DNA of 64,000 nt, taken from assembly GCA_028713155.1 (NCBI GenBank), contig JAQTPA010000004.1, positions 8,305 through 72,304 of the forward strand, read 5' to 3'. Positions within the stretch are counted from its first letter, which is position 1. Every line of letters begins with the position of its first letter. The notes under the pieces were generated by a model. That model had not been told where the DNA came from. It worked only from the letters and a program-made list of their open reading frames with translations, and ran no database searches. This DNA is from Candidatus Omnitrophota bacterium (GTDB lineage Bacteria > Omnitrophota > Gorgyraeia > Gygaellales > Profunditerraquicolaceae). Shown piece after piece: positions 4,322 to 33,939 of the stretch. The translations under genes were made by a program, and so were the position numbers.

Positions 4322-4322
4322 G

Positions 4323-11214: not shown

Positions 11215-12318
11215 ATGCAAAGTAAATTGAAACCTGTTGTCCTATACCTGGGCATTTCATTTATTCTATTGACGGCGGCTGGTTGTGTAAAAAAAAGCGA
11301 GCCGCTTGCGCAAACCCCCGAGGTTTCCGTGGTTTTTATCCGTCCTGAGCGCGTAGTCATAACTACCGAATTGCCCGGCCGCACAGCCGCTTTTCTTATT
11401 GCTGAAATCCGGCCTCAGGTCAACGGTCTTATCCAGAAACGTTTGTTTACCGAAGGCTCTGAAGTCAAAGCCGGCCAGGTGCTTTATCAGATCGATCCGG
11501 CTCAATTTAAGGCGGCGTTTGATAAGGCTAAGGCTAATCTGCCGGCTCTCAAACTAAGAGCTGACCGTTACAAGGAAGCGCTGGTTGAAAAAGCAGTCAG
11601 CCAGCAGGAATTTGACGATGCGGATGCCGCACTGAAACAGGCCGAAGCAGAACTGGAAACGGCCCAAATCAATCTTGATTACACCAAGGTCACCTCGCCG
11701 ATCACCGGACGTATCGGGACCTCTAGTGTAACTGACGGCGATATTGTGACGGCATATCAACCTACAGCTTTGGCGACTGTCCAGCAGCTGGACCCGATTT
11801 ATGTGGATATACCCCAATCTACTACCGAATTATTGCGCCTGCGCCGAAGCCTGGAGGATGGCCGCCTTAACCGCGATGGGACGAACCAGAATAAGGTAAA
11901 GCTCGTTCTGGATGACGGATCGGCGTATCCTTTGGATGGAGCGTTGCAATTCCAGGATATAACGGTTGACCCGACAACCGGTTCGGTTATCCTGCGGGTG
12001 ATCTTTCCGAATCCGAAGGGCTTTCTTTTACCGGGTATGTTCGTCCGGGCTATCATTATAGAAGGTATTAATGAACAGGCAGTTCTTGTCCCGCAGCAGG
12101 GAGTTTCCCGTAACGTGAAAGGTGAAGCTATTGCTTTGATCGTAGACGCTGAAAATAAGGTTCAACAGCGGATACTTACGCTTGAGCGCTCCATCGGTAA
12201 TAAATGGCTTGTTTCTTCAGGCCTTAATTCCGGTGACCGGGTAATTGTTGAAGGTATTCAAAAAATCAGGCCGGGAATTTCGGTGAAGGTTGTCTCTTCC
12301 GGCTCTGGCCCGAATTAA
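11215..12318 (+). CDS. RND efflux periplasmic adaptor (membrane fusion protein) lipoprotein
   Basis: Lipobox 'LTAAGC', a coiled-coil hairpin and beta-barrel motifs of the AcrA/MexA family. Confidence 0.85.
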   Translation: MQSKLKPVVLYLGISFILLTAAGCVKKSEPLAQTPEVSVVFIRPERVVITTELPGRTAAFLIAEIRPQVNGLIQKRLFTEGSEVKAGQVLYQIDPAQFKAAFDKAKANLPALKLRADRYKEALVEKAVSQQEFDDADAALKQAEAELETAQINLDYTKVTSPITGRIGTSSVTDGDIVTAYQPTALATVQQLDPIYVDIPQSTTELLRLRRSLEDGRLNRDGTNQNKVKLVLDDGSAYPLDGALQFQDITVDPTTGSVILRVIFPNPKGFLLPGMFVRAIIIEGINEQAVLVPQQGVSRNVKGEAIALIVDAENKVQQRILTLERSIGNKWLVSSGLNSGDRVIVEGIQKIRPGISVKVVSSGSGPN

Positions 12319-12329
12319 ACGGAGAATTT

Positions 12330-15300
12330 ATGCTATCAAAATTTTTCCTTGACCGTCCGGTTTTTGCTTGGGTAATCGCCATTATGATCATGGTCTTGGG
12401 AGGTTTAGCGATTTATACCCTGCCTATCGCCCAGTATCCTCCCATTGCCCCGCCGTCGATCAGGATCAGTTCCTATTATACCGGCGCCTCCGCTGAAACC
12501 GTGGAGAATAGCGTAACCCAGATTATCGAGCAGCAGATGACCGGCCTGGATAAAATGCTCTATATGTCCAGCAGTAGCGATTCTTCCGGGAGTTCTTCTA
12601 TCGAGCTAACTTTTGCTCCGGGGACCGATCCGGACATCGCCTGGACTAAAGTGCAGAATAAGCTTCAACTGGCGATGCCACGGCTTCCTGATTCAGTGCA
12701 GCGCAGGGGTGTTTCAGTCCAAAAGTCTACGCACAATTACCTTTTGATTGTGGGGTTGGTTTCCGAAGACGGCAGCATGGACGATGTAGATCTACGCGAC
12801 TATATGCTTAGCGTTGTGCAGCCGGTACTGGCGCGCGTGCCGGGAGTAGGGGAAGCGGAGGGTTTTGGCGGGGAATACGCCATGCGCATCTGGTTTGACC
12901 CTAAAAAGCTGACCAGCTACGGCTTAACAGTGGAAGATGTTGCCAAGGCATTGCAAGAGTATAATGTGGAGGTTTCCGGCGGCCAGTTCGGCGGCGCTCC
13001 GGCAGTAGAAGGGCAGCGTTTGAATGCCTCCATCATTGTGCAGAGCCTGCTTAAGACTCCCGAAGAATTCAATGATATTCCTATACGGATTAATCCGGAC
13101 GGTTCGACTATCCGTATTAAAGACATTGGTTATAGTAAGCTGGGTAGCGACCGTTTTGATATCAAACTTTTCTTGAATAAAGGCCAGCCGGCAGCCGCCA
13201 TTGCCATTCGTCAGGAGCCGGGTGCAAACGCTTTGAAAACTGCCGACGCGATTAAAGCGAAGATGGAGGAGCTAAGCCATTATTTTCCCCAGGGCGTAAA
13301 AGTTATTTACCCTTACGATACTACTCCTTTTACCCGGGTTGCCATTAAAGAAGTAGCCAAGACTCTGGTTGAAGCGATTATCCTAGTTTTTCTTATTATG
13401 TATTTATTTATGGGGAATATGCGGGCAACATTTATCCCGACGATTGCCGTGCCGGTAGTGTTACTGGGGACTTTTGCGGTACTGGGATTATTCGGTTATT
13501 CAATTAATATGTTAACCATGTTTGCCATGGTTTTGGCTATTGGCCTATTGGTAGATGACGCTATTGTTGTCGTGGAAAATGTAGAGAGGCTGATGAGCGA
13601 GGAGGGGCTTTCCCCGCGGGAAGCCGCGGCCAAGTCTATGGAGCAGATTACTCCGGCGTTAATCGGTATCGGGTTGGTCCTTTCGGCAGTCTTTGGGCCA
13701 ATGGCGTTTTTTACAGGATCAACAGGTATTATTTACCGCCAGTTTTCCATAACTGTTATCACTGCTATGCTCCTTTCGGTGGTTGTGGCTTTGATTTTGA
13801 CTCCTGTTTTGTGCGCTTCATTTCTTAAGCCGGTGCCTAAAGGAGATCAACCTGCTGAAGGCGGGATCTGGTTCCTGCGGACATTCTTTCGTTGGTTTGA
13901 CCGGTTTTTCTTTAAGGTCCGCGATTTGTACGTACGCTTGGTCGGCCATTCATTCGGCAAAAGCGCGCGTTACATCGTTTTTTATTTCTTAATCGTAGCG
14001 GCAATGTTATTTGTATTCCTTAGGATGCCCACGAGTTATCTACCGGATGAGGATCAGGGTATTTTGGTTATTATGGGTAATTTGCCTTCGGGCTCGACGT
14101 TAGAACAGGCCGAAGCAGTGATGGAAAGAGTCCGCGGTTATTTTACAGCTAATGAAAAAGAGGCAGTTGAATCGATTTTGACGGTTTCCGGCCGAAATCA
14201 ATCCGGAGGCGGGCAGAATGTCGGTATGGCTTTTATCAAACTTAAGGATTGGGATTTACGTAAGAAAGCGAGCTTAAAGGCAGAAGCAATAGCGGACCGG
14301 GCCACTAAGGAATTTGCTTTGTATAAGGAGGCGCTGGTTTATGTTTTTTCACCGCCTCCCATAATCGAACTGGGTAGCGCTAAGGGTTTTGATTTTGAAC
14401 TGCAGGACCGCGGAGGCGCCGGCCATACCAAGTTAATGCAAGCCCGTGACCAACTCCTGGATATGGTTGCTAAGGACCCGCGCCTGACCCGCGTGCGGGC
14501 CAATGGCTTAGAGGACGTGGCTCAATACAAGATTGATTTGGATTGGGATAAGGCCGGAAGCTTAGGTGTCTCTATTGCCTCTATCCAGGATACAATTTCT
14601 ACTACCTTTGGCAGTAGCTACGTGAATGATTTTATCAAAGACGGCCGGATTAAGCATGTGGATATCCAGGCCGATACCCCGTATCGTATGCTGCCCGAGG
14701 ACCTAAAAAATATTTACATACGCAACTCCAAAGGAAAGATGGTGCCTTATTCTTCTTTTGCCTCCGGCCACTGGATATTCGGTTCGCCTAAATTAGAGCG
14801 TTACAATGCTTTTCCGTCAATTAATATCTTGGGTGAAGCGGCGCGGGGCAGGAGTTCCGGAGAGGCAATGCAGGCTATGGAAGAGCTTTCAGCGAAACTG
14901 CCGCGCGAGTTTGGTTATGACTGGACCGGGCTTTCTTACCAGGAGCGGCAAGCCGGCGCCCAGGCAGGCCCGCTTTACGCTTTTTCCATTTTGATTATCT
15001 TTTTATGTGTGGCAGCGTTGTATGAAAGTTGGAGTATTCCTATTGTTAATCTATTAATGTTGCCTCTGGGTGTTTTCGGCGCGACGCTGGCAACCTCGTT
15101 ACGCGGCATGCCTAATGACGTTTATTTTCAAATCGGGTTTCTTACTACCTTAGGGTTATCTACCAAGAACGCCATTCTGATCATTCAGTTTGCCCAGTAT
15201 CGCCTGCAACATGGAGAAAAACTGATTGAGGCAACTTTGGGGGCGGCAAGAACCCGCTTCCGGCCGGTTATTATGACTTCTTTGGCTTTCTTTTTCGGCG

Positions 15301-15518
15301 TCCTGCCGCTGGCGATAGCTACCGGCGCAGGCGCAGGCGCCCAGAATGCCATCGGCACCGCGGTTGTCGGTGGGATGCTTTCTGCAACATTTATTGATCT
15401 TATTTTTATCCCGCTGTTTTTTATCCTTATATCCCGTTTTTTCGGGCGCAAGCGCAAGCAGCAGGTGCAAGCCGTAACCGTCGCTTCGGATGTTATGGGT
15501 CCACAGAAAAGTAATTAA
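12330..15518 (+). CDS. RND multidrug efflux permease, AcrB/MexB family
   Basis: 1062 aa with a 12-TM pattern, two large periplasmic loops and conserved TM4 'AIGLLVDDAIVVVENVER'. Confidence 0.9.
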   Translation: MLSKFFLDRPVFAWVIAIMIMVLGGLAIYTLPIAQYPPIAPPSIRISSYYTGASAETVENSVTQIIEQQMTGLDKMLYMSSSSDSSGSSSIELTFAPGTDPDIAWTKVQNKLQLAMPRLPDSVQRRGVSVQKSTHNYLLIVGLVSEDGSMDDVDLRDYMLSVVQPVLARVPGVGEAEGFGGEYAMRIWFDPKKLTSYGLTVEDVAKALQEYNVEVSGGQFGGAPAVEGQRLNASIIVQSLLKTPEEFNDIPIRINPDGSTIRIKDIGYSKLGSDRFDIKLFLNKGQPAAAIAIRQEPGANALKTADAIKAKMEELSHYFPQGVKVIYPYDTTPFTRVAIKEVAKTLVEAIILVFLIMYLFMGNMRATFIPTIAVPVVLLGTFAVLGLFGYSINMLTMFAMVLAIGLLVDDAIVVVENVERLMSEEGLSPREAAAKSMEQITPALIGIGLVLSAVFGPMAFFTGSTGIIYRQFSITVITAMLLSVVVALILTPVLCASFLKPVPKGDQPAEGGIWFLRTFFRWFDRFFFKVRDLYVRLVGHSFGKSARYIVFYFLIVAAMLFVFLRMPTSYLPDEDQGILVIMGNLPSGSTLEQAEAVMERVRGYFTANEKEAVESILTVSGRNQSGGGQNVGMAFIKLKDWDLRKKASLKAEAIADRATKEFALYKEALVYVFSPPPIIELGSAKGFDFELQDRGGAGHTKLMQARDQLLDMVAKDPRLTRVRANGLEDVAQYKIDLDWDKAGSLGVSIASIQDTISTTFGSSYVNDFIKDGRIKHVDIQADTPYRMLPEDLKNIYIRNSKGKMVPYSSFASGHWIFGSPKLERYNAFPSINILGEAARGRSSGEAMQAMEELSAKLPREFGYDWTGLSYQERQAGAQAGPLYAFSILIIFLCVAALYESWSIPIVNLLMLPLGVFGATLATSLRGMPNDVYFQIGFLTTLGLSTKNAILIIQFAQYRLQHGEKLIEATLGAARTRFRPVIMTSLAFFFGVLPLAIATGAGAGAQNAIGTAVVGGMLSATFIDLIFIPLFFILISRFFGRKRKQQVQAVTVASDVMGPQKSN

Positions 15519-15519
15519 T

Positions 15520-17019
15520 ATGAAACGAATACTCATTTTAATTTTAGGGATTCTGACTTGCCTGAGCGGTTGTACTATGGCTCCGAAATATAACCGGCCG
15601 GGGCCTGTGGTCCCTGAGCATTGGCCTAAAGGAGCGGCTTATCCGCAGGTTAGCCCTGCAACCAAGGTTACCGATGCTTTGCAGTTGAGATGGCAGGATT
15701 TTTTTACTGATCCCAAACTGCAGAGGATTATCCAGACAGCTCTGGAGAATAACCGGGACTTGCGGCTGGCTGCCTTGAATATGGAAAAAGCGCGGGCTTT
15801 GTACGGCGTTCAACAGGCTGAATTGTTTCCGGTTCTCGATGCAAATGGGGGCTTGGCCAAACAGCGTTATTCTTCTGATTTTATAGCTACAGGGAATCCG
15901 AAGGTAATCGAACAATACAGCGCTGACCTGGGTATTACTGCCTGGGAGATTGATTTTTTCGGGCGTATCCGCAGCCTGACAAAACAGGCATTAGAGGAAT
16001 ATTTGAGTACGCAGGAGGCCAGACGCAGCGCGCAGATTGCGCTTATCTCAGGGGTGGCCCGGGCGTATTTGGCTATTGCTACGGATGAGTCGGATCTTCA
16101 TTTGGCACGCTCCACCCTTGAAGCGCAGGAAGGCGCTTATAATTTAGTCCTGCGTCGATACAAGGTTAAGCTGGCAAATGAAATAGATTTGCAGCGGGCG
16201 CAAACCCAGGTGGATACAGCCAAGGGAGATGTGATTCTTTATACGCAACGGTTAGCGCAGGATAAAAATGCGCTGGATCTTTTAGCCGGTTCTCCTGTCC
16301 CGGAAGGCCTTTTGCCTGTTGATTTGGCAGGCGTTATTCCCTTTAAAGATATTTTTCCCGGTTTATCTTCCGGTGTGCTTCTTAAGCGGCCGGATATTAT
16401 GGCGGCAGAGCATCAGTTAAAAGGTGCCTATGCTAATATCGGGGCAGCCCGGGCTGCCTTTTTCCCCAGTATTTCGCTGACCACCGCCATTGGTTCGGCA
16501 AGCAGCGCATTTACAGGCTTGTTCTCATCCGGTAAAGGTACCTGGATCTATTCGCCGCAGGTAGTAATGCCTATTTTTGATATGCAGACCTGGGCGGCAT
16601 ATCGGGTGAGTGAAGCAGAGCGGAAAATCGCCTTGACCAAGTATGAGAAAACTATCCAAACAGCTTTTAAGGAAGTAGTCGATGTCTTGGCTGTGCAAGG
16701 TACGGTGGATGAGCAAATCACAGTGCAGCAGTCCATGGTTGATTCCGCGCAGAAGATTTATCAGCTCACAAGCAAACGCTATGTAAATGGGATTGACAGT
16801 TATTTAAGCGTTCTCGATGCCCAGCGTTCGCTCTATCGGGCACAGAAAGAGCTTATTTTGATGCAATTCTATAAACTCGTTAACGAGGTGAAAGCTTATG
16901 CAGTGCTGGGCGGAGGCGCTTTGGATGAGGCGCCTGGGGGTAAGCAAGTTAGTCGAGGTTCCTTTGAAGAAAAGGTTCTTTCGTTATTGGGCCTTAAATT
17001 TCAAGAGCCCAAGCGCTGA
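15520..17019 (+). CDS. outer membrane efflux factor lipoprotein (OprM/NodT family)
   Basis: Start at ATG 15520 ('MKRILILILGILTCLSGC', lipobox), overlapping the pump stop. Two tandem OEP repeats. Confidence 0.85.
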   Translation: MKRILILILGILTCLSGCTMAPKYNRPGPVVPEHWPKGAAYPQVSPATKVTDALQLRWQDFFTDPKLQRIIQTALENNRDLRLAALNMEKARALYGVQQAELFPVLDANGGLAKQRYSSDFIATGNPKVIEQYSADLGITAWEIDFFGRIRSLTKQALEEYLSTQEARRSAQIALISGVARAYLAIATDESDLHLARSTLEAQEGAYNLVLRRYKVKLANEIDLQRAQTQVDTAKGDVILYTQRLAQDKNALDLLAGSPVPEGLLPVDLAGVIPFKDIFPGLSSGVLLKRPDIMAAEHQLKGAYANIGAARAAFFPSISLTTAIGSASSAFTGLFSSGKGTWIYSPQVVMPIFDMQTWAAYRVSEAERKIALTKYEKTIQTAFKEVVDVLAVQGTVDEQITVQQSMVDSAQKIYQLTSKRYVNGIDSYLSVLDAQRSLYRAQKELILMQFYKLVNEVKAYAVLGGGALDEAPGGKQVSRGSFEEKVLSLLGLKFQEPKR

Positions 17020-17081
17020 AGAATTTTCAAAGATAAGCTAACCGATCTTATTTGAAGTATATACGCAATTTACATATAATC

Positions 17082-18527
17082 ATGAAATATAACCACGCCT
17101 TATTCCTGAACCCCTATATTGAAAGCAGCGCTAACAGCACAATGATGCTCTTTCCTCCTGTCGGGCTTGAATATGTGGCTACCAGCGCAAGGGGGTTAGT
17201 CAATAAAATCACCCTTATGGATTTAAGGCATGAGCCGGAATTGGCTGATCCGGAAAAACTCCTGGCCTTTATATCCAGCCGGATCGATATTTTATGCGTA
17301 AGTATCGGTTGGGAGCGCCAGTTTGACGAAATCTGTCAAATGCTCAGCCGCGTGCCGGACCATATAACGCTGGTCGTAGGTGGTTATAAAGCTACCGAAA
17401 AAGTGGAAGAACTTTTTAAGAAATGCCCTACAATCGATATCATTGTTCGGGGTGAGGGCGAAGAAACAATTAAAGAGATATTAAAAGACGAACCGCTTAA
17501 AGATATTCTGGGTATCTCTTACCGCGAAAACGGCTTAATAGTGCATAACCCTAACCGCCCGCTTCCCGGCGTAGATAGATTAGGCTCGCCTGACCGTTCC
17601 CTGCGGCGTAATGAATATTCTTTCGCCTTAAACGGGATAAAAATAGCGGATATAAGCTTTGATTCTGTGTTAAGCGCGCGGGGCTGCCCTTTTAACTGTA
17701 AATTCTGCACCTTCAACTTAAATCCCCTCGGCCAAAAAAGGAATTATTCCGCCCGCAGCGTTGTTTCCGTAGTAGATGAGATACAAAGTTTAAAAGCGGG
17801 AGTGGTCATTCTTAGCGACGATGATTTTTTTGCCGATCCCAAAAGGGCAGAAGAGATTTGCGATCTGATCATTGCCCGAAAGATCAAGAAACGTTTTATG
17901 GCCCAGGCGCGCATAGATATCGCTAAATACCCGCGGCTGCTTGAAAAAATGGTCAAGGCCGGATTCAAGGCGCTTTTAATCGGCATCGAATCCCCGCATA
18001 ACTGGATACTCAAACAGCTCAATAAAGGGTTTAATCAGGAGGCGATCCGGAAATATTTCAAGGTCCTGAATAAATACCCTATTTTTTATAACGGTTATTT
18101 TATTTACGGGAATATCGGCGAGACGGAAAAAGAAATGCTTTATATAGGACAATTTGCCAAGGAGATCGGGGTTGATTCCATCGCCTGCAATAAATTAAGG
18201 ATCGAGAAATTCTCGTCATTAAGAGATTTGGCCGATAAAACTCCCGGTTACCATGTTACTGAAAGGGGAGAACTTTATTCCGATACCTATAGCCACGCCG
18301 CCTTAAAGAAAATAGGCCGGCGGATAAAATTCTCTTTCTACACCCCTTCAAGATACGCCAAAATTCTCTGGAAGAATATTTTTATAGTAAGATTTTTTAC
18401 TCTTAAAGAAATACTTTTTTTCTTAGGCGTGACCCCGCGGCTTTTCATAAGTGTCATTGCCAGAGAATTGCGCCGGGGCAGGCTCGGAGATTCCCTGAAA
18501 AGGACGTTTATCAGTAATAAAAAATAG
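17082..18527 (+). CDS. B12-binding-domain radical SAM protein
   Basis: N-terminus 'ALFLNPY...PPVGLEYVA' is a cobalamin-binding domain. 'CPFNCKFCTF' is the CxxxCxxC radical SAM motif. The ORF track starts at an upstream TTG. Confidence 0.7.
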   Translation: MKYNHALFLNPYIESSANSTMMLFPPVGLEYVATSARGLVNKITLMDLRHEPELADPEKLLAFISSRIDILCVSIGWERQFDEICQMLSRVPDHITLVVGGYKATEKVEELFKKCPTIDIIVRGEGEETIKEILKDEPLKDILGISYRENGLIVHNPNRPLPGVDRLGSPDRSLRRNEYSFALNGIKIADISFDSVLSARGCPFNCKFCTFNLNPLGQKRNYSARSVVSVVDEIQSLKAGVVILSDDDFFADPKRAEEICDLIIARKIKKRFMAQARIDIAKYPRLLEKMVKAGFKALLIGIESPHNWILKQLNKGFNQEAIRKYFKVLNKYPIFYNGYFIYGNIGETEKEMLYIGQFAKEIGVDSIACNKLRIEKFSSLRDLADKTPGYHVTERGELYSDTYSHAALKKIGRRIKFSFYTPSRYAKILWKNIFIVRFFTLKEILFFLGVTPRLFISVIARELRRGRLGDSLKRTFISNKK

Positions 18528-18575
18528 CCATAGATGGTTGAATTTAGAGTTTTATGCCCGTCTATAAACAAAAAA

Positions 18576-18608
18576 GCCCCGATTCCTGCTACCTCTCGGG
18601 GTTCTTTT
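18576..18608 (+). terminator. rho-independent terminator after the radical SAM gene
   Basis: ccccgattcctgctacctctcgggg followed by ttctttt. Confidence 0.55.
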
Positions 18609-18653
18609 GTAGGTGATAGGCCTAATAGCTCCCGCTATCGTCCTAACCTCCTT
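18602..18653 (+). repeat. copy 2 of the ~52-nt conserved terminator-adjacent element
   Basis: ttttgtaggtgataggcctaatagctcccgctatcgtcctaacctcctt. See copy 1 at 1532-1582. Confidence 0.6.
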
Positions 18654-18770
18654 GTTGCTTGTTCCTGTTCTTCCCTACAGCTACAGTATGCCATATATTT
18701 GCCCGGATTTCAAGTCCCTCCTAAAAAATGCTGCTTTAATCCTACGTTGGGTATAGTATAATATCTAAAT

Positions 18771-20867: not shown

Positions 20868-20896
20868 TTGAACTAACGCAGGTGTAGATATATAAT
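20868..20896 (+). promoter_or_regulatory. sigma70-like promoter TTGAAC-17-TATAAT for the KS/CLF cluster
   Basis: -35 at 20868-20873 and -10 at 20891-20896. ATG at 20911 with no Shine-Dalgarno. Confidence 0.5.
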
Positions 20897-20910: not shown

Positions 20911-22032
20911 ATGGATAAAAAACGTATAGTCATAACGGGTTTAGGTATAATTTCCAGCGTGGGGATTGGCAAAGAAGCCTTTACTGAGAATATCTTTAAA
21001 GGTATTTCCGGGATAAAGCCGATTACTTCCTTTGATACCGCGCCTTTTAAAGTCAAAGATGCCGGAGAGATAAGCAATTTTGCTCCGGAGGCGATCTTAG
21101 GGCCAAAAGGCCTGCGCACGCTTGACCGGAGCATAAAATTAGTGGCTTCTAGCGCCAAGTTAGCTTTGGATGACAGCGGCCTCGAAATAACCGAAGCTAA
21201 TTCCAGGGATACGGGAATTGCCATAGGTACTACTTTCGGCAGCCTCTCCAGTATTTGCGATTTTGATAAAGAAGCGCTTACTGAAGGAGTGCGCTATGTC
21301 AACCCCGCGCTTTTTCCCAATACGGTAATTAATTCACCGGCCAGCCAGGCCTCCATAAAATTCAATATCAAGGGATTTAATATTACCGTCTCTTCAGGTT
21401 TTTCCGCCAGTCTGGATGCTCTAAATTACGCTTTAGATGCCTTAAGGAATGATCGGGTAAAAATAGCGCTTTGCGGCGGAGTAGAAGAATTCTGTATTCA
21501 GGAATTTTTAGGTTTTTATAAAGCCGGTTGCCTTACCGATACCCGCGGCATAGTTTTAGGGGAGGGCGCCGGTATTTTAATATTGGAAGAACTGAATGCG
21601 GCTTTGGCGCGCAAGGCAAAAATTTACGCTGAACTCCTGGGTTTTGGCTCGGCGATCCAGGATTTAAAAAAATCCATGCAATTAAGCCTGGAAGAGGCGC
21701 TTCTTACGCCTGAAAAAATAGATTATATTAGCAGCGCGGCAAATTCTGCGGAAGAATTTGGCGTAAGCGAGGCAAAAGCAATCGAGGAATTGTTTGGCGA
21801 GAAAGCGAAAACTATCCCGGTAAGTTCGATTAAGCCGCTAGTCGGCGAACTTTTTAGCGCCTCGGGAAGTTTACAGGTTACTGCGGCAATCAGCGCGCTA
21901 GAGAAGCAGGCTGTTCCTCCCATCCTGCTTAATCAGGCTAAGGCTTCTAAAATTGAAAATATCTTGATCAATGCTGCAGGAAAAACCGGTTCTAATTCCA
22001 GCTTGATAATTTCTAAATTTAAGGGATACTAA
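20911..22032 (+). CDS. beta-ketoacyl synthase-like protein lacking catalytic Cys/His/His (chain-length-factor-like KS-beta)
   Basis: Thiolase/KAS fold (N-terminus 'RIVITGLGIISSVGIG', 'GEGAGILILEE', 'KIYAELLGFG'). The active-site Cys region reads 'ITVSSGFSAS'. The His positions read 'SSAANSAEE' and 'GELFSASG'. Confidence 0.7.
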   Translation: MDKKRIVITGLGIISSVGIGKEAFTENIFKGISGIKPITSFDTAPFKVKDAGEISNFAPEAILGPKGLRTLDRSIKLVASSAKLALDDSGLEITEANSRDTGIAIGTTFGSLSSICDFDKEALTEGVRYVNPALFPNTVINSPASQASIKFNIKGFNITVSSGFSASLDALNYALDALRNDRVKIALCGGVEEFCIQEFLGFYKAGCLTDTRGIVLGEGAGILILEELNAALARKAKIYAELLGFGSAIQDLKKSMQLSLEEALLTPEKIDYISSAANSAEEFGVSEAKAIEELFGEKAKTIPVSSIKPLVGELFSASGSLQVTAAISALEKQAVPPILLNQAKASKIENILINAAGKTGSNSSLIISKFKGY

Positions 22033-22036: not shown

Positions 22037-22783
22037 ATGTTGTTTAAGGATAAGGTAGCAATAGTAACCGGCGGCTCAAGAGGAATAGGCAGGGCCCTGG
22101 TTTTAATGCTGGCGCAGGAAGGGGCGGATGTTGCTTTTACTTACGCCAAAAGCGTCCAGGAAGCAGAATCCTTAAGTTCTGAGATAAAGAAATTGGGCCG
22201 TAAGGTATTAGCCTTGCAAATGGATGTAGCGGATTTTGATAAGGCTAAAGAGCTGGTCGAAAAAGTAAAAGAGGGCCTGGGAAGCCTGGATATACTGGTG
22301 AATAATGCCGGGATAATCCGGGATAAGGCCCTGATGATGATGACTAAAGATGACTGGCGCGAAGTTATTGATACCAATCTTAACGGGACTTTCAATGTTA
22401 CGCGCAACGCCATCGTAACTTTTTTAAAACAGAAAAGCGGCTCAATCGTCAATATTACCTCGGTTAGCGGCGTAGCCGGAATGAGCCGGCAGACTAATTA
22501 TGCCGCTTCGAAAGCCGGGATCATCGGTTTTACCAAATCTTTAGCTAAAGAGGTCGCGCCTTACAATATCCGGGTCAATGCGGTTGCCCCCGGTTTTATT
22601 GAGACGGATATGATCTCGGGCTTAAAAGATGAATTCAAGGAAGGGCTTAAAAAAAAGATACCCCTGTCCAGATTAGGCAGGGTAGAGGATGTTAGCGCGG
22701 CAGTTAAATTTTTATTAAGCGATGCGGCGAATTTTATTACCGGGCAGACCATTATCGTTGATGGCGGATTATTTATACAATAA
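22037..22783 (+). CDS. fabG: 3-oxoacyl-ACP reductase (SDR family)
   Basis: 'VTGGSRGIGRA' Rossmann motif, 'NNAGI' and catalytic 'YAASKAG'. Confidence 0.8.
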   Translation: MLFKDKVAIVTGGSRGIGRALVLMLAQEGADVAFTYAKSVQEAESLSSEIKKLGRKVLALQMDVADFDKAKELVEKVKEGLGSLDILVNNAGIIRDKALMMMTKDDWREVIDTNLNGTFNVTRNAIVTFLKQKSGSIVNITSVSGVAGMSRQTNYAASKAGIIGFTKSLAKEVAPYNIRVNAVAPGFIETDMISGLKDEFKEGLKKKIPLSRLGRVEDVSAAVKFLLSDAANFITGQTIIVDGGLFIQ

Positions 22784-22801: not shown

Positions 22802-23050
22802 ATGCCGGATTTAGAGAATGAAATAAGGAATATGATTGCGGAGATCGTTGAAAAAGATCCTGCTCAAGTTACTCTGGATGCCAAATTTTTTGAGGAGCTA
22901 GGTATGGATTCGATGATGGCATTGGAGATCATGGCCGGGATGGAAAAAAAATATAAAATTACTATCCCCGAAGAAAAACTTACTCAACTGACTACCTTAA
23001 GGGAAACTGTCGCGGTAGCCAAAGAATACCTGGAAAAAAAGAATGCTTAA
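22802..23050 (+). CDS. acyl carrier protein (cluster-dedicated)
   Basis: 82 aa with 'LGMDSMMALEI' surrounding the phosphopantetheine-attachment Ser. Confidence 0.8.
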   Translation: MPDLENEIRNMIAEIVEKDPAQVTLDAKFFEELGMDSMMALEIMAGMEKKYKITIPEEKLTQLTTLRETVAVAKEYLEKKNA

Positions 23051-23477
23051 TATTGAAGAGATACAAAAAATACTGCCCCAGAAATTTCCTTTTTTGATGA
23101 TCGACCGGGTCTTGGAGCTTGAGCCCGGCAAGAAAATCGTAGCGCTCAAAAATATATCGATTAATGAAAGTTTTTTCGGCGGGCATTTTCCGGGCCAACC
23201 GGTCATGCCCGGGGTTTTAATCATTGAAGCTATGGCCCAGGCTGCAATTATCATGTTTTATTCTCCGGAGAATGTTTCCGGAGACAAGAAGGCCTCTTAC
23301 TATCTGGCCTCGGTCAAGGTAAGATTCCTGCATCCTTTGACTGCGGGCGACCAGCTAAAAATAGAGGTTGAGCCGATCAAGGTGATCTCGGGAGCAGGGT
23401 TAGTCAAGGCTCAAGCCAGCGCCGGAGGCAAAGAAATTGCCAGCGCCGAATTAAGTTTTAGTGTCAAGCATGTATAA
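23043..23477 (+). CDS. fabZ: 3-hydroxyacyl-ACP dehydratase
   Basis: '[11 protein letters not shown]' and '[19 protein letters not shown]' are canonical FabZ hot-dog motifs. Confidence 0.85.
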
Positions 23478-24657
23478 GCGCGTCGTAATTACAGGGTTAG
23501 GAGTAGTATCTTCCATCGGAATAGGTAAAGACGATTTCTGGAAGGCTTTGACCGCAGGAACTTCCGGGATCAGCAAGGTCAGTTCTTTTGATACTTCCGA
23601 ATATCCCACGCATTACGGCGGAGAGGTAAAGGGTTTTAACTCTGAGGCTAAAAATATGGGCCGGGCCTCACAACTAGCAATAGCTTCGGCTAAGCTCGCC
23701 TTAAGTGATGCCGGAATAAAATTAGATAATCCCGGGCTTGCCGAAACCGGCGTGGTTATCGGCACAACTATGGGAGAGTCCCAGGTTCTCGAGAAATTGA
23801 ATGACGCTTGGGTAAAAAAAGGAACCGAGGCAATCGACCCGGCATTAATCCCCCAGTATCCCTGTAATGTGCTTTCACTGAATGTCGCTAAGGAATTAAA
23901 ACTAAATGGACCAAACCTGGTTATACCTAATGCCTGTGCTGCGGGGAATTACGCTATAGGCTATGCCTATGATCTTATCCGTATGGCTAGGGTTGATACT
24001 ATGTTGGCAGGAGGCACAGACGCGTTTTCCCGGATCGCCTTTATCGGTTTTAACCGGCTGCTCGCGGTTGCGCCGGAGAAATGCCAGCCGTTTGATAAGA
24101 ACAGGAAAGGGATGCTGGTAGCCGAGGGTTCGGCAATGATTCTTATTGAAACGCTGGAGGCAGCCTTAAAAAGAGGCGCGCAAATTTACGCTGAGATTTT
24201 AGGCTATGGTTTAAGTTGCGATGCCCATCATATGACCGCGCCTTTTTCCGAAGGGATAGAAGAAGCTATTGAGAAAGCGCTTAAACAGAGTAAGATCCCG
24301 CCGGAAAGAATAGATTATTTCAGCGCTCACGGCACAGGAACACCCGCTAATGACCGGGAAGAGTGCGGGGCAATAAAAAAAGTATTCGGCGATTATTCTA
24401 AAAAATTACCGGTCAGTTCCATTAAATCCATGCTGGGGCATACCATGGGAGCTGCTTCGGCAATTGAGGCAGTTGCCTGCGCCTTAAGCGTTAAAAATGA
24501 TATTATTCCTCCCACGATAAATTTCCAGACTCCTGATCCGGAGTGCAATATTGACTGTGTCCCGAATGTTGCCCGTGCGGCAAGGGTAGATGTTGCTTTA
24601 AACAGCGCTTCTGCTTTTGGCGGGAATAACGCCTGCCTGGTGCTTAAGAAGTTTTAG
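23461..24657 (+). CDS. beta-ketoacyl-ACP synthase (catalytic KS, FabF/FabB-like)
   Basis: Catalytic Cys in '[13 protein letters not shown]', His in '[11 protein letters not shown]' and 'GHTMGAAS'. Confidence 0.85.
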
Positions 24658-25786
24658 AAACAGGATCCATGTTCTTGGGCTCAATTAACGGTTTGATCAT
24701 CCGGATAATAAAGTTAAGGATCGGGTTAAAAGCCCTGGCGTATATATCTAACGCTACGAGTTTGGCTCCCAGCCGTATTTTAGGATGATAGTCGCTAAAA
24801 CCCGGTTGATAAGCTTTAAGCTTATGCTCTATGCACCACTCAATATTATGACAGAAAGTCGTATAATAAAGGTGGTATTTATGGGCTACCGTGTAATCAA
24901 ATCCGATGAATTTATCGATAAATATGCCTTCTTTGATCAAGCATAAATTGAAGGCTACGATTTTATCCTTATCATAAGTAATGAAATATTTAGCTACCCC
25001 GGGCATATTTTTACAGATATCCAGAAAGAATTTCCTGGTAAGGGTTTCAAAATGTACGTCCGCTTCAGCAACATTGTTCAGGTATAGTTTGTAGATATCG
25101 TCGATTATATCGGTTATATCCAGGCGTTCTTCGGTTTTAAGCTGAACAATTTCCCCTGAGCGGCGTAATTTCTTTTTGAGGTCTTTGCGGGTGTTCCTGC
25201 TTAATCCTCGCAGATAATCTTCCAGCGAACCCGCCATTATATTAATTGCGGTAGTAGGCAGTGTCTCCATTTTTATGAATTTTATTCTTTTGAGGTATTC
25301 GGCAAGCTTTAAGGATTTAGCCGAGAGGTTATAGAAGGCCATTCCTAATATCTTTTCTCTTTTAGAAAATTCCTGCAATTTTTCCAGCGCCTGGTCTAAG
25401 GCTGCTTCAAGATCTACTTCAGGAGATAACCCCATTGAAAATCCTTCGGTGGTAGGCGAGCCGGCAAAAAGGAGTTTTATTTTTAACCAGCGGCCGAGGA
25501 CTGCGGCTGCTTTATGCAGGTATTCAGGGAGGAGCATCGCAAAAGAGAAATCCATCACAAAGAAAGGCAGGATTAATACGCTACGGTTTTTTTCTTTTCC
25601 GACCAGGTAGCCGAAAGAAAATTCTTCAGTTCCGCCTTCCTCCAGGGTTTTTAAGTAACCGTAGCTTTCAACCAGGTCCTGGCCAAAAAGCCTATCCCAA
25701 TCTTCCGCAGGTATAGCGCGTATCTTTTTAACTATGGAAAAGCTTAAGTCCGGCAGGGTTTCTTTCATAGGGCTGTAGTATAACAA
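24644..25786 (-). CDS. DUF482/FemAB-like GNAT-fold protein (COG3146 family)
   Basis: 380 aa and the only minus-strand gene in the window. The C-terminal block '[30 protein letters not shown]' matches the conserved DUF482 core. Confidence 0.55.
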
Positions 25787-25831
25787 AAAGAGCCCCCCCG
25801 CACAATTAAAAAATTATTTTTTAGCGTTTTG

Positions 25832-25840
25832 TGGTACAAT
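25832..25840 (+). promoter_or_regulatory. extended -10 promoter element TGgTACAAT, leaderless-type
   Basis: TG at 25832-33 and TACAAT at 25835-40. The ATG at 25850 lies 9 nt downstream with no SD. Confidence 0.4.
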
Positions 25841-25849
25841 ATTCCTCTT

Positions 25850-26695
25850 ATGGATAATACGGGTTCCCGGAAATTTGATTTTTTCCTGAAAGGCAGTAAT
25901 GGCAAGGCAGTTTTGCTCATTCACGGCATCACCGGCACGCCTTCCGAAATGAATTATTTAGGCAAGTCTTTGCATAAAGCCGGCTTTAGCGTAGTTTGCA
26001 ATACCCTGCCCAAACATTGCCGGAGCCTGGGCGAGCTAAGGAGAGTTACCTGGCAGGAGATAGCCTGTGCTTGCGTTAAAGACCTGGAGGGCCTTAAAAA
26101 TGAGTATTCCGAGGTTTCTGTAGGCGGGCTATCTATGGGCGCGCTTATGGCTGTCCATCTTGCTTATAAATACCCGCATTTAGTCTCTAGAATTATTGCT
26201 TTGGCTCCCACTATCTTTTACGACGGCTGGGCAGTGCCTAAGCGGAAAATATTAATGGATATCTTATGGTATGTGCCTTTTATCCGGAACAGGTTTGATA
26301 TCAGGGAGAGTTGGCCTTACGGTTTAAAAAATGAACTCTTAAGAGCAGGTATGGAGAGGTTTTATCGCAACGCCAAAGCATCGGTAAATGATGGCCGGGT
26401 AGCTATTTTTGGCAGCCCATTTTTTCCGATGAGCTGCCTTTATCAGCATCACCTCCTCGCTAAAATAGTTAAACAGGAACTATCCGGCGTACGTGCACCC
26501 ATCCTTATTATTCATGCTAAAGATGACGATATGACCAGTTTTAAGAACGCGCAATACGTGTACGAGCGCATCGGCTCTCCGGACAAATCTTTAATCATGC
26601 TCGACGACAGCTATCATATGATAACTATTGATAAGCAGAAGAGTAAAGTCGCGGAAGAAGTGCTTAAATTCCTGAATAAACCCAATAATAATTGA
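25850..26695 (+). CDS. alpha/beta-fold hydrolase (esterase/thioesterase-like)
   Basis: Nucleophile elbow 'GLSMG' and a possible oxyanion-hole 'HGITG' in 'LLIHGITGTPSEM'. Start placed at ATG 25850. Confidence 0.65.
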   Translation: MDNTGSRKFDFFLKGSNGKAVLLIHGITGTPSEMNYLGKSLHKAGFSVVCNTLPKHCRSLGELRRVTWQEIACACVKDLEGLKNEYSEVSVGGLSMGALMAVHLAYKYPHLVSRIIALAPTIFYDGWAVPKRKILMDILWYVPFIRNRFDIRESWPYGLKNELLRAGMERFYRNAKASVNDGRVAIFGSPFFPMSCLYQHHLLAKIVKQELSGVRAPILIIHAKDDDMTSFKNAQYVYERIGSPDKSLIMLDDSYHMITIDKQKSKVAEEVLKFLNKPNNN

Positions 26696-28200
26696 ATATG
26701 GAATATGACGCAATTATAATCGGCGCGGGGGCCGCGGGGTTAACTGCCGCGGTTAAATTGTCCTCCTTGGGCAAGAAGATCCTCCTCTTAGAGAAACAGC
26801 CTGTTCCGGGAGGTTTTGCTACTACCTTTAACCGGAAGGGTTTTATCTTTGAGAGCGCCTGGCATTGTGTTGACGGCCTGCAGGAAGGGGGAGAGCTAAG
26901 GAATTTTCTTGAGGAATACGGCATTATTCAAAAAATAAATTTTATTGAGCTTAAGGATTTTAGCCGGATTATCTATCCGGAGCATGATTTTACCGCCGGA
27001 TTTAACCGCGATAGTTTCGTAAAGTACCTTAAAAAAAGTTTTCCGCAGGAAAGCAGAGGCATCGAAAGGCTCTTTGGCGCCTTTGATAGGTTCTACCGGC
27101 AGCTTGACCGGTACTCTTATTCTAAGATACCCGTATCCTTAAAGATCGCATTGGCCCCGATTCTGTACCCTGAAATTATCCGGGCATCCTTTATTACCGC
27201 CGAGCAGTTTATCGGGAAATTTATCACTGATGCCAAGCTTAAAGGCATCCTTACGGATATCTGGAGTTTTATCGGCCTTGCGCCCGGCAGGCTTTCGGCG
27301 TTTTATTATCTTATTGTCTTCCGGGGGTATTATTATTTGCCGACATCCTATGTCAAGGGAAGCTCCCGCGAACTTTTCAAGGCAATGGCGGAGAAGATCA
27401 GGGAAAATGGTTCGGAGATAAAATTTAATACTCCGGCCGTAAGGATTATTACGGACGATGGTAAAGCGGTTAAGGCCGTAGTTACCGATAAAGAGGAAAT
27501 ATTTAAAGCTAAAGTTGTAATAAGTAATGCCAATCCTATCGATACTTTGGAGAACCTTATTGATAGCCCCGTAACGAGAGGGAGATACCATAAAAATTTA
27601 GCCGGTTTAGAGAAATCAATTTCAGCTTGTCAGGTATATCTGGGATTAAAGAAGCCGGCGAAAGATCTGGGCATGGATCATTTTATGTTTTCCGTAAATA
27701 CTAGCTATAGCCATGAAGAGGATCTTGAGTCTTGCCTGAGCGCGGACTATGATAATTGTTCTTTTTCGCTGGTGGACCATGCTCAGGTGGAACCTGCGTT
27801 AGTGCCTGACGGAAAGGGGAGTCTTATAATTATGGCCATAGACTCTTACACTAATTGGGAAAAGCTTTCTCCGCAAGAATATAAGCTAAAAAAACAGGTG
27901 GTGGCCAAGAGGTTAATCCAGCGGGCTGAAAAGTATTTGCCGGGGCTGGCCGAAGCTATTGAAGCAATGGAAATAGCTACCCCCAAGACTATGGAGCGCT
28001 ATGGTTCTGCGCCTGGGGGCGCGATTTACGGGTTTGCCCAGACTCCGGAACAGTCAACTTTCCGTAGATTCCCTTTAAAAACTGAAGTAAGGGGCTTGTT
28101 TTTAACCGGCGCCTGGACTCAGCCAGGCGCAGGGGTTCATGCCTGTTTTATCTCCGGAATGGATGCCGCAAAATCGGCCTTGAATTCTTTAAGACGATGA
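26692..28200 (+). CDS. FAD-dependent oxidoreductase, phytoene-desaturase (CrtI)/amine-oxidase superfamily
   Basis: N-terminal 'YDAIIIGAGAAGLTAA' dinucleotide-binding motif. Its ~500-aa length and C-terminal FAD motif region are typical of COG1233. Confidence 0.7.
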   Translation: MNMEYDAIIIGAGAAGLTAAVKLSSLGKKILLLEKQPVPGGFATTFNRKGFIFESAWHCVDGLQEGGELRNFLEEYGIIQKINFIELKDFSRIIYPEHDFTAGFNRDSFVKYLKKSFPQESRGIERLFGAFDRFYRQLDRYSYSKIPVSLKIALAPILYPEIIRASFITAEQFIGKFITDAKLKGILTDIWSFIGLAPGRLSAFYYLIVFRGYYYLPTSYVKGSSRELFKAMAEKIRENGSEIKFNTPAVRIITDDGKAVKAVVTDKEEIFKAKVVISNANPIDTLENLIDSPVTRGRYHKNLAGLEKSISACQVYLGLKKPAKDLGMDHFMFSVNTSYSHEEDLESCLSADYDNCSFSLVDHAQVEPALVPDGKGSLIIMAIDSYTNWEKLSPQEYKLKKQVVAKRLIQRAEKYLPGLAEAIEAMEIATPKTMERYGSAPGGAIYGFAQTPEQSTFRRFPLKTEVRGLFLTGAWTQPGAGVHACFISGMDAAKSALNSLRR

Positions 28201-29934: not shown

Positions 29935-30978
29935 ATGAAGATAGTCGTTGATGCCATGGGCGGGGATTACGCGCCCGATGTAGTCATCCAGGGGACATTA
30001 GCTGCGGTTAAGGAATACGGCGCAGATGTAATTTTAGTCGGGGACGAGGCGAAAATAAATCCTCTGCTTAAAAAAACCAAGTATTCCGGCCCCCAAATCA
30101 GCGTAGTGCATGCGCCGGAGACAATCGGGATGTGCGAGTCTGCCGCTCTCAGCGTGCGCAGGAAAAGGAAATCTTCCATTGTTATCGGCGTGAACCTGGT
30201 GAAGGAAGGTAAGGCTGGCGCGTTCTTTAGCGCCGGAAACACCGGCGCAGTCGTTTGCGCGGCGACTTTGGGTTTAGGTCTTATTCCCGGAGTTGAGCGG
30301 CCGGGCATAGCGATCATAACTCCTACCTTAAAAGGAAGCTCTCTGATTATTGACGTTGGCGCTAATATTGATCCGAAGCCGACCCAGCTTTTGCAATACG
30401 CGATTATGGCTGATGTTTACAGCCGGACCATCTTGAATAAGACCGATCCTTCCATAGGATTATTGAATATCGGCGAAGAAGAGGCTAAGGGCACTGAATT
30501 TATGCGCGAGACGCATGAATTGCTTCAGACGAGCAATCTTAATTTTATCGGTAATGTCGAAGGAAAGGATTTTTTCTCCGGCAAGGCCGATATTATTGTC
30601 TGCGACGGGTTTGTAGGCAATGTCGCGCTGAAGGTTTCGGAAAGCGCGGTTGCCGTGATGCAGGTATTTTTAAAGAGGCATTTATTAAGCAATCCTTTGG
30701 GTAAATTAGGATTGCTTTTTCTTTTACCGAGTTTAAAGCGTTTTAAAAAAGAGCTGAATTATGCCGAATACGGCGGCGCTCCCTTGCTGGGGGTTAACGG
30801 CGTAACGATAATCGGCCATGGCCGTTCTAATGTCAAGGCGATAAAGAATGCCATCAGGGTAGCCAAGGAAGAGATTGAGCGCAAGTTTAATGAGAAGATA
30901 ATCGAGGCCATCGGTAAGAGACGGTCCTTGCCTGAACGCCAGCCAGACCCTTCGGAAACAACCCCAATTAAGGAGTAA
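29935..30978 (+). CDS. plsX: phosphate acyltransferase PlsX
   Basis: 'KIVVDAMGGDYAP' at the N-terminus and 'GFVGNVALK'. Confidence 0.9.
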   Translation: MKIVVDAMGGDYAPDVVIQGTLAAVKEYGADVILVGDEAKINPLLKKTKYSGPQISVVHAPETIGMCESAALSVRRKRKSSIVIGVNLVKEGKAGAFFSAGNTGAVVCAATLGLGLIPGVERPGIAIITPTLKGSSLIIDVGANIDPKPTQLLQYAIMADVYSRTILNKTDPSIGLLNIGEEEAKGTEFMRETHELLQTSNLNFIGNVEGKDFFSGKADIIVCDGFVGNVALKVSESAVAVMQVFLKRHLLSNPLGKLGLLFLLPSLKRFKKELNYAEYGGAPLLGVNGVTIIGHGRSNVKAIKNAIRVAKEEIERKFNEKIIEAIGKRRSLPERQPDPSETTPIKE

Positions 30979-30979
30979 T

Positions 30980-32850: not shown

Positions 32851-32851
32851 T

Positions 32852-33595: not shown

Positions 33596-33620
33596 GTATT
33601 CTAACAAGGAGGAAAAAAGA

Positions 33621-33863: not shown

Positions 33864-33888
33864 TTTATATAGATAGTGTAATAAACTA

Positions 33889-33920: not shown

Positions 33921-33939
33921 AGTTACCTCTTATGGACAT

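Follow-up and report, generated by a model that had tools for sequence, protein, structure and literature searches.

We analyzed a 64,000-nucleotide stretch of DNA from a Candidatus Omnitrophota bacterium (contig JAQTPA010000004.1 of assembly GCA_028713155.1), hereafter the window, and focus on a gene at 20911–22032 (plus strand, ATG start, 373 amino acids) whose product we call KSmut. KSmut is a protein of the KAS II/FabF fold in which all three catalytic residues of a ketosynthase (KS) are replaced. Our favored reading, to which we give a probability of roughly 0.8, is that KSmut is a non-catalytic, structural subunit, similar in role to a chain-length factor (CLF), that forms a heterodimer with the live KS at 23461–24657, in the same operon. 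We base this reading on the replaced residues and how well they are conserved, on the fold and the operon, and on homology to characterized proteins of anammox bacteria; heterodimer formation, activity, chain-length control and the product of the operon are what we infer from them.

The catalytic positions of KSmut

The open reading frame (ORF) 20911..22032 (plus strand, 373 residues) is present exactly as an earlier note, made from the sequence of this DNA, had given it, and its translation contains all three peptides quoted there as active-site regions, 'ITVSSGFSAS', 'YISSAANSAEE' and 'GELFSASG'. Pfam assigns both ketosynthase domains to the protein (PF00109, 107.5 bits; PF02801, 59.8 bits). 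We read its catalytic columns by alignment to the two intact KAS II proteins of the window, the KS at 23461–24657 and the FabF at 33940–35187, with each of which it is 33% identical. The alignment places neither Cys nor His at the triad positions; the triad is wholly replaced. The first catalytic His corresponds to Ala276 (codon 21736–21738, plus strand) and the second to Glu313 (21847–21849, plus strand), as the earlier note had read them. Its reading of the catalytic Cys as Ser or Gly was off by one to three residues: in register (SSGFSAS against ATACASG, F in the column of C), the Cys is replaced by Phe164 (21400–21402, plus strand).

The active-site Lys is kept as Lys308 (21832–21834, plus strand). 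Together with Glu313 and position 322 (21874–21876, plus strand) it makes up a K-E-Q set, and the complete signature at the positions used by Rattray et al. 2009 reads F-A-N-A-K-E-Q-K. The loss of the triad cannot be put down to chance or misalignment: of the 120 database proteins closest to KSmut, 114 have Phe, 112 have Ala or Gly, and all have Glu and Lys in the respective columns. A helix-loop-helix motif, F135-P-N-T138-V139 (21313–21327, plus strand), stands where its counterpart in the anammox structure 9S5H lines the partner's acyl tunnel. The NCBIfam fabF model TIGR03150 gives KSmut 247.2 bits, under its cut-off of 493.75.

Fold and missing loops

As the earlier note had supposed, the thiolase fold is retained. 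An AlphaFold2 model of KSmut, built on an alignment of the 120 closest homologues, has a mean pLDDT of 93.3 and a pTM of 0.93, and its superposition on the ishigamide KS and on structures of FabF gives a query-normalized TM of 0.90–0.93 (Foldseek, PDB; this set ends in April 2026 and thus lacks 9S5H, which is included in the copy of the PDB used for sequence searches). Compared with a full-length KAS II, KSmut is missing three loops of about 15, 12 and 14 residues, near its positions ~213, 249 and 338, all of which are present in FabF and in amxFabFmut of Brocadia; model confidence dips slightly at the three junctions. This short form (356–373 residues), to which KSmut belongs, occurs in about 25 of the 120 close homologues and looks like a further reduction of a dead subunit. 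The missing loops would border the pantetheine entrance, if that subunit had one, and their loss would fit a purely structural role.

KSmut resembles the dead subunit of an anammox heterodimer

In sequence searches of the PDB, the best match of KSmut is chain C of 9S5H (9s5h_C, 275.9 bits), followed by the best FabF at 168 bits; a family-profile search ranks 9s5h_C at 529, 9s5h_B at 434 and the best FabF at 420 bits. The best match of the live KS at 23461–24657 is 9s5h_B, at 519.4 bits. Entries 9S5H and 9S5I hold the amxFabF heterodimer of Brocadia fulgida, in which chain C is amxFabFmut, the dead subunit (bioRxiv 10.64898/2026.05.19.726425). According to this May 2026 preprint, amxFabFmut (KustE3606/Broful02170) is encoded in 'ladderane Cluster I' (KustE3603–3608), which comprises amxACP, amxFabZ, amxFabF2, amxFabFmut, PDH and a B12-binding radical SAM protein (rSAM). 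AmxFabF2 and amxFabFmut co-purify as a heterodimer and each is inactive alone; together they decarboxylate malonyl-amxACP and form acetoacetyl-ACP (ACP, acyl carrier protein), with a preference for C6 and C8 crosslinking probes. Residues F135, T138 and V139 of amxFabFmut line the tunnel of the live subunit, mutation of F135/V139 shifts the chain-length preference, and amxACP touches both subunits (bioRxiv 10.64898/2026.05.19.726425). Rattray et al. 2009 (PMC2649909) had earlier pointed out that the triad of Kuste3606 is degenerate.

KSmut has in common with amxFabFmut the KAS II fold, a wholly replaced triad, the kept Lys, Glu in place of the second His, and F135, T138 and V139; the two are 46% identical, KSmut having 373 residues and amxFabFmut 412. 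Both are encoded with an amxFabF2-type KS, an amxACP-type ACP, an amxFabZ-type dehydratase and, in the window as a putative counterpart downstream of the operon, a PDH-like flavoenzyme. The three tunnel residues do not vary among the 21 dead subunits that we compared, which come from Brocadia and other anammox genera and from Omnitrophota, the window included, and the live partners in this comparison keep the triad and the gate Phe. Counterparts of amxACP, amxFabZ, amxFabF2 and amxFabFmut are all found in the window at 41–59% identity, in a different order. KSmut thus shows every amxFabFmut-type feature that we examined, namely fold, triad, tunnel residues, sequence closeness and cluster, with monophyly left unresolved in a broad tree (see below). 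Taken together, the genes of the window cluster do not make up a 'ladderane Cluster I': the gene order differs, a FabG-like reductase is added, an rSAM of the Cluster I type is not present, and the host belongs to Omnitrophota rather than Brocadiales. The proteins nearest to KSmut (99–75% identity) come from metagenome-assembled genomes (MAGs) of Candidatus Omnitrophota.

The KSmut operon

KSmut is the first gene of a tightly packed operon in the order KSmut, FabG-like, ACP, FabZ, KS. The FabG-like 3-oxoacyl-ACP reductase (22037–22783, plus strand) follows after a gap of 4 nt; it scores 238.7 bits on the Pfam family adh_short_C2 and 313.9 bits on NCBIfam TIGR01830, over the cut-off of 297.75. 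After a further 18 nt comes a dedicated ACP (22802–23050, plus strand; PF00550, 58 bits) with the serine motif LGMDSM, whose best PDB matches are the anammox-specific amxACPs 7qv0_D, 7auf_A and 9s5i_E at 55–60 bits, ordinary ACPs reaching at most 45. The ACP gene overlaps by 8 nt with that of a FabZ-like 3-hydroxyacyl-ACP dehydratase (23043–23477, plus strand; PF07977, 101.4 bits; TIGR01750, 158 bits, over the cut-off of 155.15). The top four PDB matches of this protein, 7qv0_A, 8ayb, 8ayi and 8ayc, score 133–138 bits, and chains deposited as canonical FabZ score at most 122; entry 7qv0 holds an amxACP chain alongside the FabZ-type chain, and amxFabZ is described in PMC10139942. The last gene, overlapping fabZ by 17 nt, encodes the catalytic KS (23461–24657, plus strand, GTG start), with Cys159, His290, Lys322 and His327 in the active site and Phe386 as gate. 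No enoyl reductase is encoded in the cluster.

About 2 kb downstream of the operon lies a gene for a PDH-like FAD oxidoreductase, similar to phytoene desaturases and carotenoid isomerases (26692–28200, plus strand; PF01593, 89.8 bits). Its NCBIfam profile (crtI_fam, 163.7 bits; carot_isom, 172.3 bits) is the same as that of the anammox PDH, and it is 29% identical to the Brocadia PDH over the full length; by homology, it appears to be the counterpart of the Cluster I PDH. A canonical type II fatty-acid synthase (FAS II) operon, plsX-fabH-fabD-fabG-acpP-fabF (29935–35187), which includes the canonical FabF at 33940–35187, lies about 8 kb downstream of KSmut.

Between the recG stop and the KSmut start there is one pair of sigma-70-like hexamers, TTGAAC-17-TATAAT (20868–20896, plus strand), the only such pair in this interval, ending about 15 nt before the ATG. 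It is a match to the consensus only, and sigma-70-like sites in the region are no more numerous than expected from shuffled sequence. It is a possible candidate promoter of the operon, whose mRNA may then have a very short leader. We found no Shine-Dalgarno-like purine run before the KSmut start (…TATAATGCATCAAAATTAAAATG).

Loci across anammox bacteria and Omnitrophota

A scan of one genome per species gave 302 relatives of the dead subunit, of which the best 80 were kept. The best 43 of these 80 loci, plus L080, belong to Brocadiales, and the others are mostly labeled Omnitrophota; some MAGs are labeled 'Planctomycetia' or 'bacterium', and those that we examined, L052, L058, L071 and L072 among them, have the Omnitrophota-type gene order. 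Identity to the Brocadia dead subunit is 81–94% in the anammox loci, which form a separate group, and 46–51% in the Omnitrophota-type loci.

We counted gene order in the 26 anammox and 13 Omnitrophota loci with adequate flanks. The anammox order is ACP, FabZ, KS, KSmut, PDH, rSAM: the first four genes are linked and KS adjoins KSmut in 26/26 loci, and the rSAM is present in 25/26. The Omnitrophota order, KSmut, FabG-like, ACP, FabZ, KS, is found in 11 of the 13 loci, with the FabG-like gene following KSmut in 12; this survey detected no FabG-like gene in the anammox Cluster I loci. A homologue of PDH, 28–38% identical to the anammox protein, lies within 9 kb in 8/13 Omnitrophota loci. At the Cys, first His, second His and Lys positions, the anammox dead subunits read V-N-E-K (35 of 42) and those of Omnitrophota F-(N/G/S/A/T)-E-K, and the partner KSs of the related loci are C-H-H-K without exception (66/66). 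A neighbor-joining tree of 41 sequences and one outgroup places all dead subunits in one clade with 100% bootstrap, and its dead-KS and live-KS subtrees show mirrored topologies.

Some loci depart from these orders. In L046 (12975–17427, from a MAG labeled Planctomycetales), KSmut, FabG and ACP are followed by a FabZ gene beyond two inserted AAA/DUF4143 ATPase genes, and we detected no KS partner gene in this locus. Downstream of the live KS, an additional and divergent KS-like gene is present in some loci of the Omnitrophota type (L067, 14147 onwards; L052, 15467–16735); the copy in L067 has an intact triad and a very long branch, and that in L052 is 25–28% identical to the KS proteins of the window.

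A large family of degenerate ketosynthases and natural fusions

An exhaustive search of 1.84 billion representatives returned 1217 proteins at E ≤1e-30. We examined the best 150, of which 147 had a scorable KS-like domain, and obtained catalytic-column data for 134 degenerate domains. Numbered here as in Rattray et al. 2009, that is, by E. coli FabB (Cys 163, Asn300, Lys328, Glu333, Gln342), the degenerate domains share Asn300, Lys328, Glu333 and a non-acidic residue at 342: 66/134 read K-E-Q and about 100 K-E-x, and 39 of 42 active domains read K-H-E. The Cys position is unconstrained, with F, E, Y, Q, M, A and further residues represented. The exact FPNTV motif occurs in 52 of the 134 degenerate domains and in no active one. 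Glu in place of His333 goes together with Gln, or some other residue that is not acidic, in place of Glu342; this pair of changes looks like a compensatory charge swap that would keep the buried Lys paired. Dead subunits of the Lys-Glu-Gln/FPNTV kind form a large, diverse and mostly unannotated family. It extends outside the PVC group, since the cluster of one representative includes a protein with the annotation Lachnospiraceae. In genome annotation, such dead subunits are filed as 'beta-ketoacyl-ACP synthase family protein'.

Two KS domains are present in 38 of the 147 representatives, in the order active then degenerate in 37/38. These natural fusions are an independent argument that live and dead subunits work as a pair. 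The fusions, of about 800 residues, join an intact KS (C-H-H-K) to a C-terminal degenerate KS, which is of the Lys/Glu type in 14; examples are P0124, P0128, P0135, P0136, P0138, P0155, P0172, P0186, P0197 and P0207, with P0223, P0228, P0249 and P0252 among the others, none of which bears a name in the library.

A proposed role for KSmut

We consider that KSmut probably interacts with the KS at 23461–24657 on the grounds of homology, gene linkage and the natural KS-to-dead-KS fusions. Of the two subunits, only the KS at 23461–24657 has a working Cys-His-His site, and it would do all the chemistry; without the dead subunit, the live one would neither fold nor act. F135, T138 and V139 of KSmut would wall the acyl tunnel of the live subunit and so limit chains to about C6–C8, and KSmut would also form about half of the docking surface for the ACP encoded at 22802–23050. 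The heterodimer would prime by decarboxylating malonyl-ACP and condensing it to acetoacetyl-ACP, and would go on to elongate the chain. The beta-keto group would be processed by the reductase (FabG-like) and the dehydratase (FabZ-like) of the operon, and the nearby PDH-like flavoenzyme may modify the chain. With no enoyl reductase in the operon, a housekeeping one could be borrowed, the PDH-like protein could act on the chain, or the product could stay unsaturated. The end product would be a specialized acyl chain, from a pathway encoded next to the canonical FAS II operon (29935–35187). KSmut would then represent a separate degenerate FabF lineage that acts like a CLF. The suggestion of the earlier note that the protein is a CLF-like partner of the KS at 23461–24657 is supported by the homology of the pair to 9s5h_C and 9s5h_B; the KS-beta family, which the note also named, is not the one to which KSmut belongs.

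Several observations weigh against this reading. The anammox complex was not seen elongating beyond acetoacetyl-ACP in vitro (bioRxiv 10.64898/2026.05.19.726425). The Cys position holds Phe in KSmut and Val or Thr in anammox amxFabFmut, the first His is replaced by Ala in the former and Asn in the latter, and the three loops are deleted in KSmut only. KSmut and KS are separated by three genes in the window, whereas their anammox counterparts are adjacent. Linear net charge does not reproduce the electrostatic asymmetry by which the preprint explains heterodimer specificity, and it fails to do so for the Brocadia pair as well. We had considered the net charge of the helix-loop-helix (110–140) and of helix 196–206 as a test of heterodimer specificity and dropped it, both Brocadia proteins being at −3; since the Brocadia pair itself does not show the 3D-surface asymmetry in this measure, linear net charge is uninformative. 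Finally, in a broad neighbor-joining tree that includes 50%-identity representatives of the wider family, the deep nodes have ~0% support, and for this reason we do not claim strict orthology of KSmut to Kuste3606.

Either Kuste3606 or Kuste2805 may be the true anammox orthologue of KSmut. Kuste2805, a 'non-canonical FabB' of Kuenenia stuttgartiensis, is encoded by the side of the FabF Kuste2804, the B12-binding rSAM Kuste2803 and the AcpS Kuste2802 (Rattray et al. 2009, PMC2649909; Javidpour et al. 2016, PMC4790861), and its signature is Phe163/Asn298/Asn300/Cys302/Lys328/Glu333/Gln342/Phe392 (Rattray et al. 2009, PMC2649909). Compared by this published signature alone, it shares Phe163, Asn300, Lys328, Glu333 and Gln342 with KSmut. 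Its cluster, in which it adjoins a live FabF and a B12-binding rSAM, lacks the ACP/FabZ pair that is common to the window and Cluster I. Our trees do not include Kuste2805, and no anammox Kuste2805-like sequence was found among the 120 close homologues, the 150 library representatives, 10 clusters or the homologues of the neighboring rSAM. The Phe163 and Asn300 remnants of Kuste2805 are closer to the Omnitrophota proteins than those of Kuste3606 are. Kuste2804 and Kuste2805 make a second live-KS/dead-KS pair in anammox bacteria; in the literature searched, we found no biochemical characterization of Kuste2805, nor of the two as a heterodimer.

Alternative explanations

It is improbable, in our judgment, that KSmut is an enzyme in its own right, maybe as a homodimer, with Asn278, Lys308, Glu313 and Gln322 catalyzing another reaction such as the recruitment or coupling of a non-malonyl unit. 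A reaction of this kind was proposed for Kuste3606 and Kuste2805 by Rattray et al. 2009 (PMC2649909), and the strong conservation of Asn300, Lys328, Glu333 and Gln342 over a very diverse radiation in which the Cys position varies, including the K-E-Q and K-E-x counts given above, speaks for it, as do the homodimer crystals of Scalindua amxFabFmut (bioRxiv 10.64898/2026.05.19.726425). Yet there is no conserved nucleophile at the Cys position, where Phe, Tyr, Val, Glu, Met and others are found, and amxFabFmut alone has no detectable activity and is unreactive with mechanism-based probes (bioRxiv 10.64898/2026.05.19.726425). The H333E and E342Q replacements would be read more simply as a charge swap that keeps the Lys paired, and in the subclade of the window the loops flanking the KAS II active-site entrance are deleted. 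We regard it as very unlikely that KSmut pairs with another KS, such as the FabF at 33940–35187, or that it is a decoy for ACP with a regulatory or inhibitory effect. In favor of this, the canonical FAS II operon is only ~8 kb downstream, KSmut is equally similar to both live KSs of the window (33%), and L046 and L048 carry a KSmut gene with no KS detected nearby; in L046 the missing KS is probably due to rearrangement, as two DUF4143 ATPase genes are inserted there. Against such a partner stand the membership of KSmut in the operon, its co-inheritance with an amxFabF2-type KS rather than FabF, and the solved heterodimer, which pairs the mut type with the F2 type. Decay of a functionless fabF duplicate would explain the loss of the triad and the three loops, but the ORF is intact, hundreds of homologues in at least two phyla keep invariant motifs, the AlphaFold2 model is highly confident, and Glu313, Lys308 and FPNTV are conserved; we find this the least credible of the alternatives.

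Dead KS paralogues are familiar from type II polyketide synthases (PKSs), whose CLFs heterodimerize with a live KS and shape the product tunnel; in aromatic PKSs, the Cys position of the CLF is typically occupied by Gln. FabF, by comparison, is a homodimer. A KS, a dead KS, a ketoreductase, a dehydratase and an ACP without an enoyl reductase are the gene set of polyene-forming type II PKSs, and this is also what the window operon holds. The cluster could then be read as one for an aryl polyene (APE), flexirubin or other type II polyketide, with KSmut as an ordinary CLF (KS-beta), the more so as the ishigamide KS Iga11 is a high-ranking match of both subunits and the FlxB model for flexirubin gives the FabG-like protein 258.8 bits. 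KSmut does resemble the type II PKS CLFs (ActB, 1TQY_B; Iga12, 6KXD_B; ApeC) in being a dead KS clustered with a KS and a dedicated ACP. It belongs, however, to another sequence family: ActB (1tqy_B) reaches 89 bits in the single-sequence search, in which it ranks below FabB and FabF, FabFs reach 168 and Iga12 is not listed, and no CLF, ActB and Iga12 included, is among the best 60 profile matches. The Cys position holds Phe, not Gln, and the FlxB and AmcF/AmcE model scores are under their cut-offs. The context is fatty-acid-like, in that the cluster sits among housekeeping genes beside plsX-fabHDG-acpP-fabF. Pfam and NCBIfam detect no APE-type adenylation, methyltransferase, LolA-like/MMPL export or ApeI/ApeP genes among those at 17–29.7 kb; the ApeI-like match of the FabZ-like protein is 18.3 bits, under the cut-off of 28.5, and the only RND-type set (11215–17019) lies upstream of the rSAM gene, outside the operon. 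With model scores below cut-off and accessory genes missing, we rejected the APE, flexirubin and cispentacin readings, and we give an ordinary PKS origin of KSmut little chance. Canonical FabF, as represented in the window (33940–35187), is alike to KSmut in fold (Foldseek TM 0.93), length class and 33% of residues, and differs in having the triad and, in place of FPNTV, its own helix-loop-helix sequence. A structural, CLF-like subunit paired with the KS at 23461–24657 remains the reading that we favor.

Neighboring genes and the rest of the window

Convergent with the operon is a gene for a FemAB-like protein of the GNAT acyltransferase fold (24644–25786, minus strand; PF04339, 65.5 bits; PF13480, 43.5 bits; no NCBIfam match). 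It is wedged between the live KS and the hydrolase and PDH-like genes, and of the window ORFs scanned, no other sizeable one on the minus strand has a family assignment. A counterpart with 46% identity occupies the same position in the closest locus, L072. Its association with the cluster is uncertain; the protein may transfer the acyl product. An alpha/beta-hydrolase, a possible thioesterase or acyltransferase, is encoded at 25829–26695 (plus strand; PF12146, 75.8 bits). Its gene adjoins that of PDH in L060 and L072 and is likely part of the cluster, within the subclade of the window only.

Upstream, a B12-binding rSAM by Pfam assignment is encoded at 17052–18527 (plus strand), with a 75-residue ORF and recG between it and the operon. 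It is HpnJ/BchE-like, scores below every NCBIfam cut-off (best 120 bits against 578) and is only 24–25% identical to the Cluster I rSAM. It is unusually conserved within Omnitrophota, with 71–91% identity throughout its best 120 database clusters; over the same number of clusters the dead KS, more loosely conserved, drops to 51–56%. It is seen near KSmut only in the window and in L044. No rSAM occurs within 9 kb of KSmut in the 13 Omnitrophota loci with adequate flanks, and within 10 kb a Cluster I-type rSAM is found in no non-anammox locus except that of L044 (24% identity), as opposed to 25/26 anammox loci. By these comparisons, the rSAM at 17052–18527 is not the Cluster I rSAM; it is a separately conserved Omnitrophota gene and probably not part of the KSmut system. 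To mark the ladderane rSAM we tried the NCBIfam model TIGR04072, 'rSAM_ladder_B12', and rejected it. The window rSAM scores 53.7 against the cut-off of 360, and the genuine Cluster I rSAM of Ca. Brocadia pituitae (L002, 12708–14165) scores only 87.7 bits, from which it follows that TIGR04072 describes another lipid-associated rSAM family.

The remaining genes of the window are housekeeping genes (Mla lipid transport, RND efflux, leu, asd and arg), which makes this a core chromosomal region rather than a secondary-metabolite island. Envelope-lipid genes cluster upstream of the lipid-synthesis region: a lipid-transport set of MlaE, MlaF, MlaD and an auxiliary lipoprotein at 1719–4964, and an RND efflux set of a membrane-fusion protein, a 1062-residue pump and an outer-membrane factor at 11215–17019. 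Four ORFs have no Pfam match at the thresholds used (848–1498, 216 residues; 4975–5433, 152 residues; 18534–18761, 75 residues; 39863–41389, 508 residues), and the 75-residue ORF at 18534–18761 has no NCBIfam match either. No Rfam family (tRNA, rRNA, riboswitch, leader) reaches its gathering score on either strand of the 64 kb. Nearly every sizeable ORF is on the plus strand, and GC skew is positive in all 4-kb bins, with the cumulative skew climbing steadily to 1.87 and GC content at 42–49%; the window thus lies within one replichore, with its genes co-oriented with replication.

Implications

Guidance of a live KS by a dead subunit had long been regarded as a property of polyketide synthases. 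Such subunits in a fatty-acid-type pathway were reported only in May 2026, from anammox bacteria, where they were tied to the unsolved synthesis of ladderanes (bioRxiv 10.64898/2026.05.19.726425). The live/dead KS arrangement of anammox bacteria is thus already known; what is new here is a member in Omnitrophota, together with its operon. Cluster I has been called unique to ladderane producers (bioRxiv 10.64898/2026.05.19.726425), and our finding contradicts this working assumption. In the literature, antiSMASH 'ladderane' calls in Omnitrophota and other non-anammox phyla are mentioned in passing, without analysis.

Omnitrophota are mostly ultra-small, uncultured bacteria and, to our knowledge, are not known to make ladderane lipids. 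We suggest, tentatively, that the FAS-like core of Cluster I (live KS, dead KS, ACP, FabZ and PDH-like protein) is not specific to ladderane producers and that Omnitrophota carry a homologous module. With the same caution, we picture the Omnitrophota module as a conserved chromosomal operon next to canonical FAS II, with a ketoreductase added and the B12-binding rSAM of Cluster I lacking. If this is true, the module would make a short or otherwise unusual acyl-ACP, not itself a ladderane, and the formation of cyclobutane rings in anammox bacteria would be the work of the rSAM enzymes, which Omnitrophota lack. In this comparison the rSAM enzymes are peculiar to anammox bacteria, and they are the better candidates for cyclobutane formation; the parts common to both phyla probably serve as generic machinery for short chains. 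Less likely, Omnitrophota produce lipids related to ladderanes for which no one has looked. The two-subunit design, with the same tunnel-lining residues, would extend to Omnitrophota and provide a natural comparison set for the anammox enzymes.

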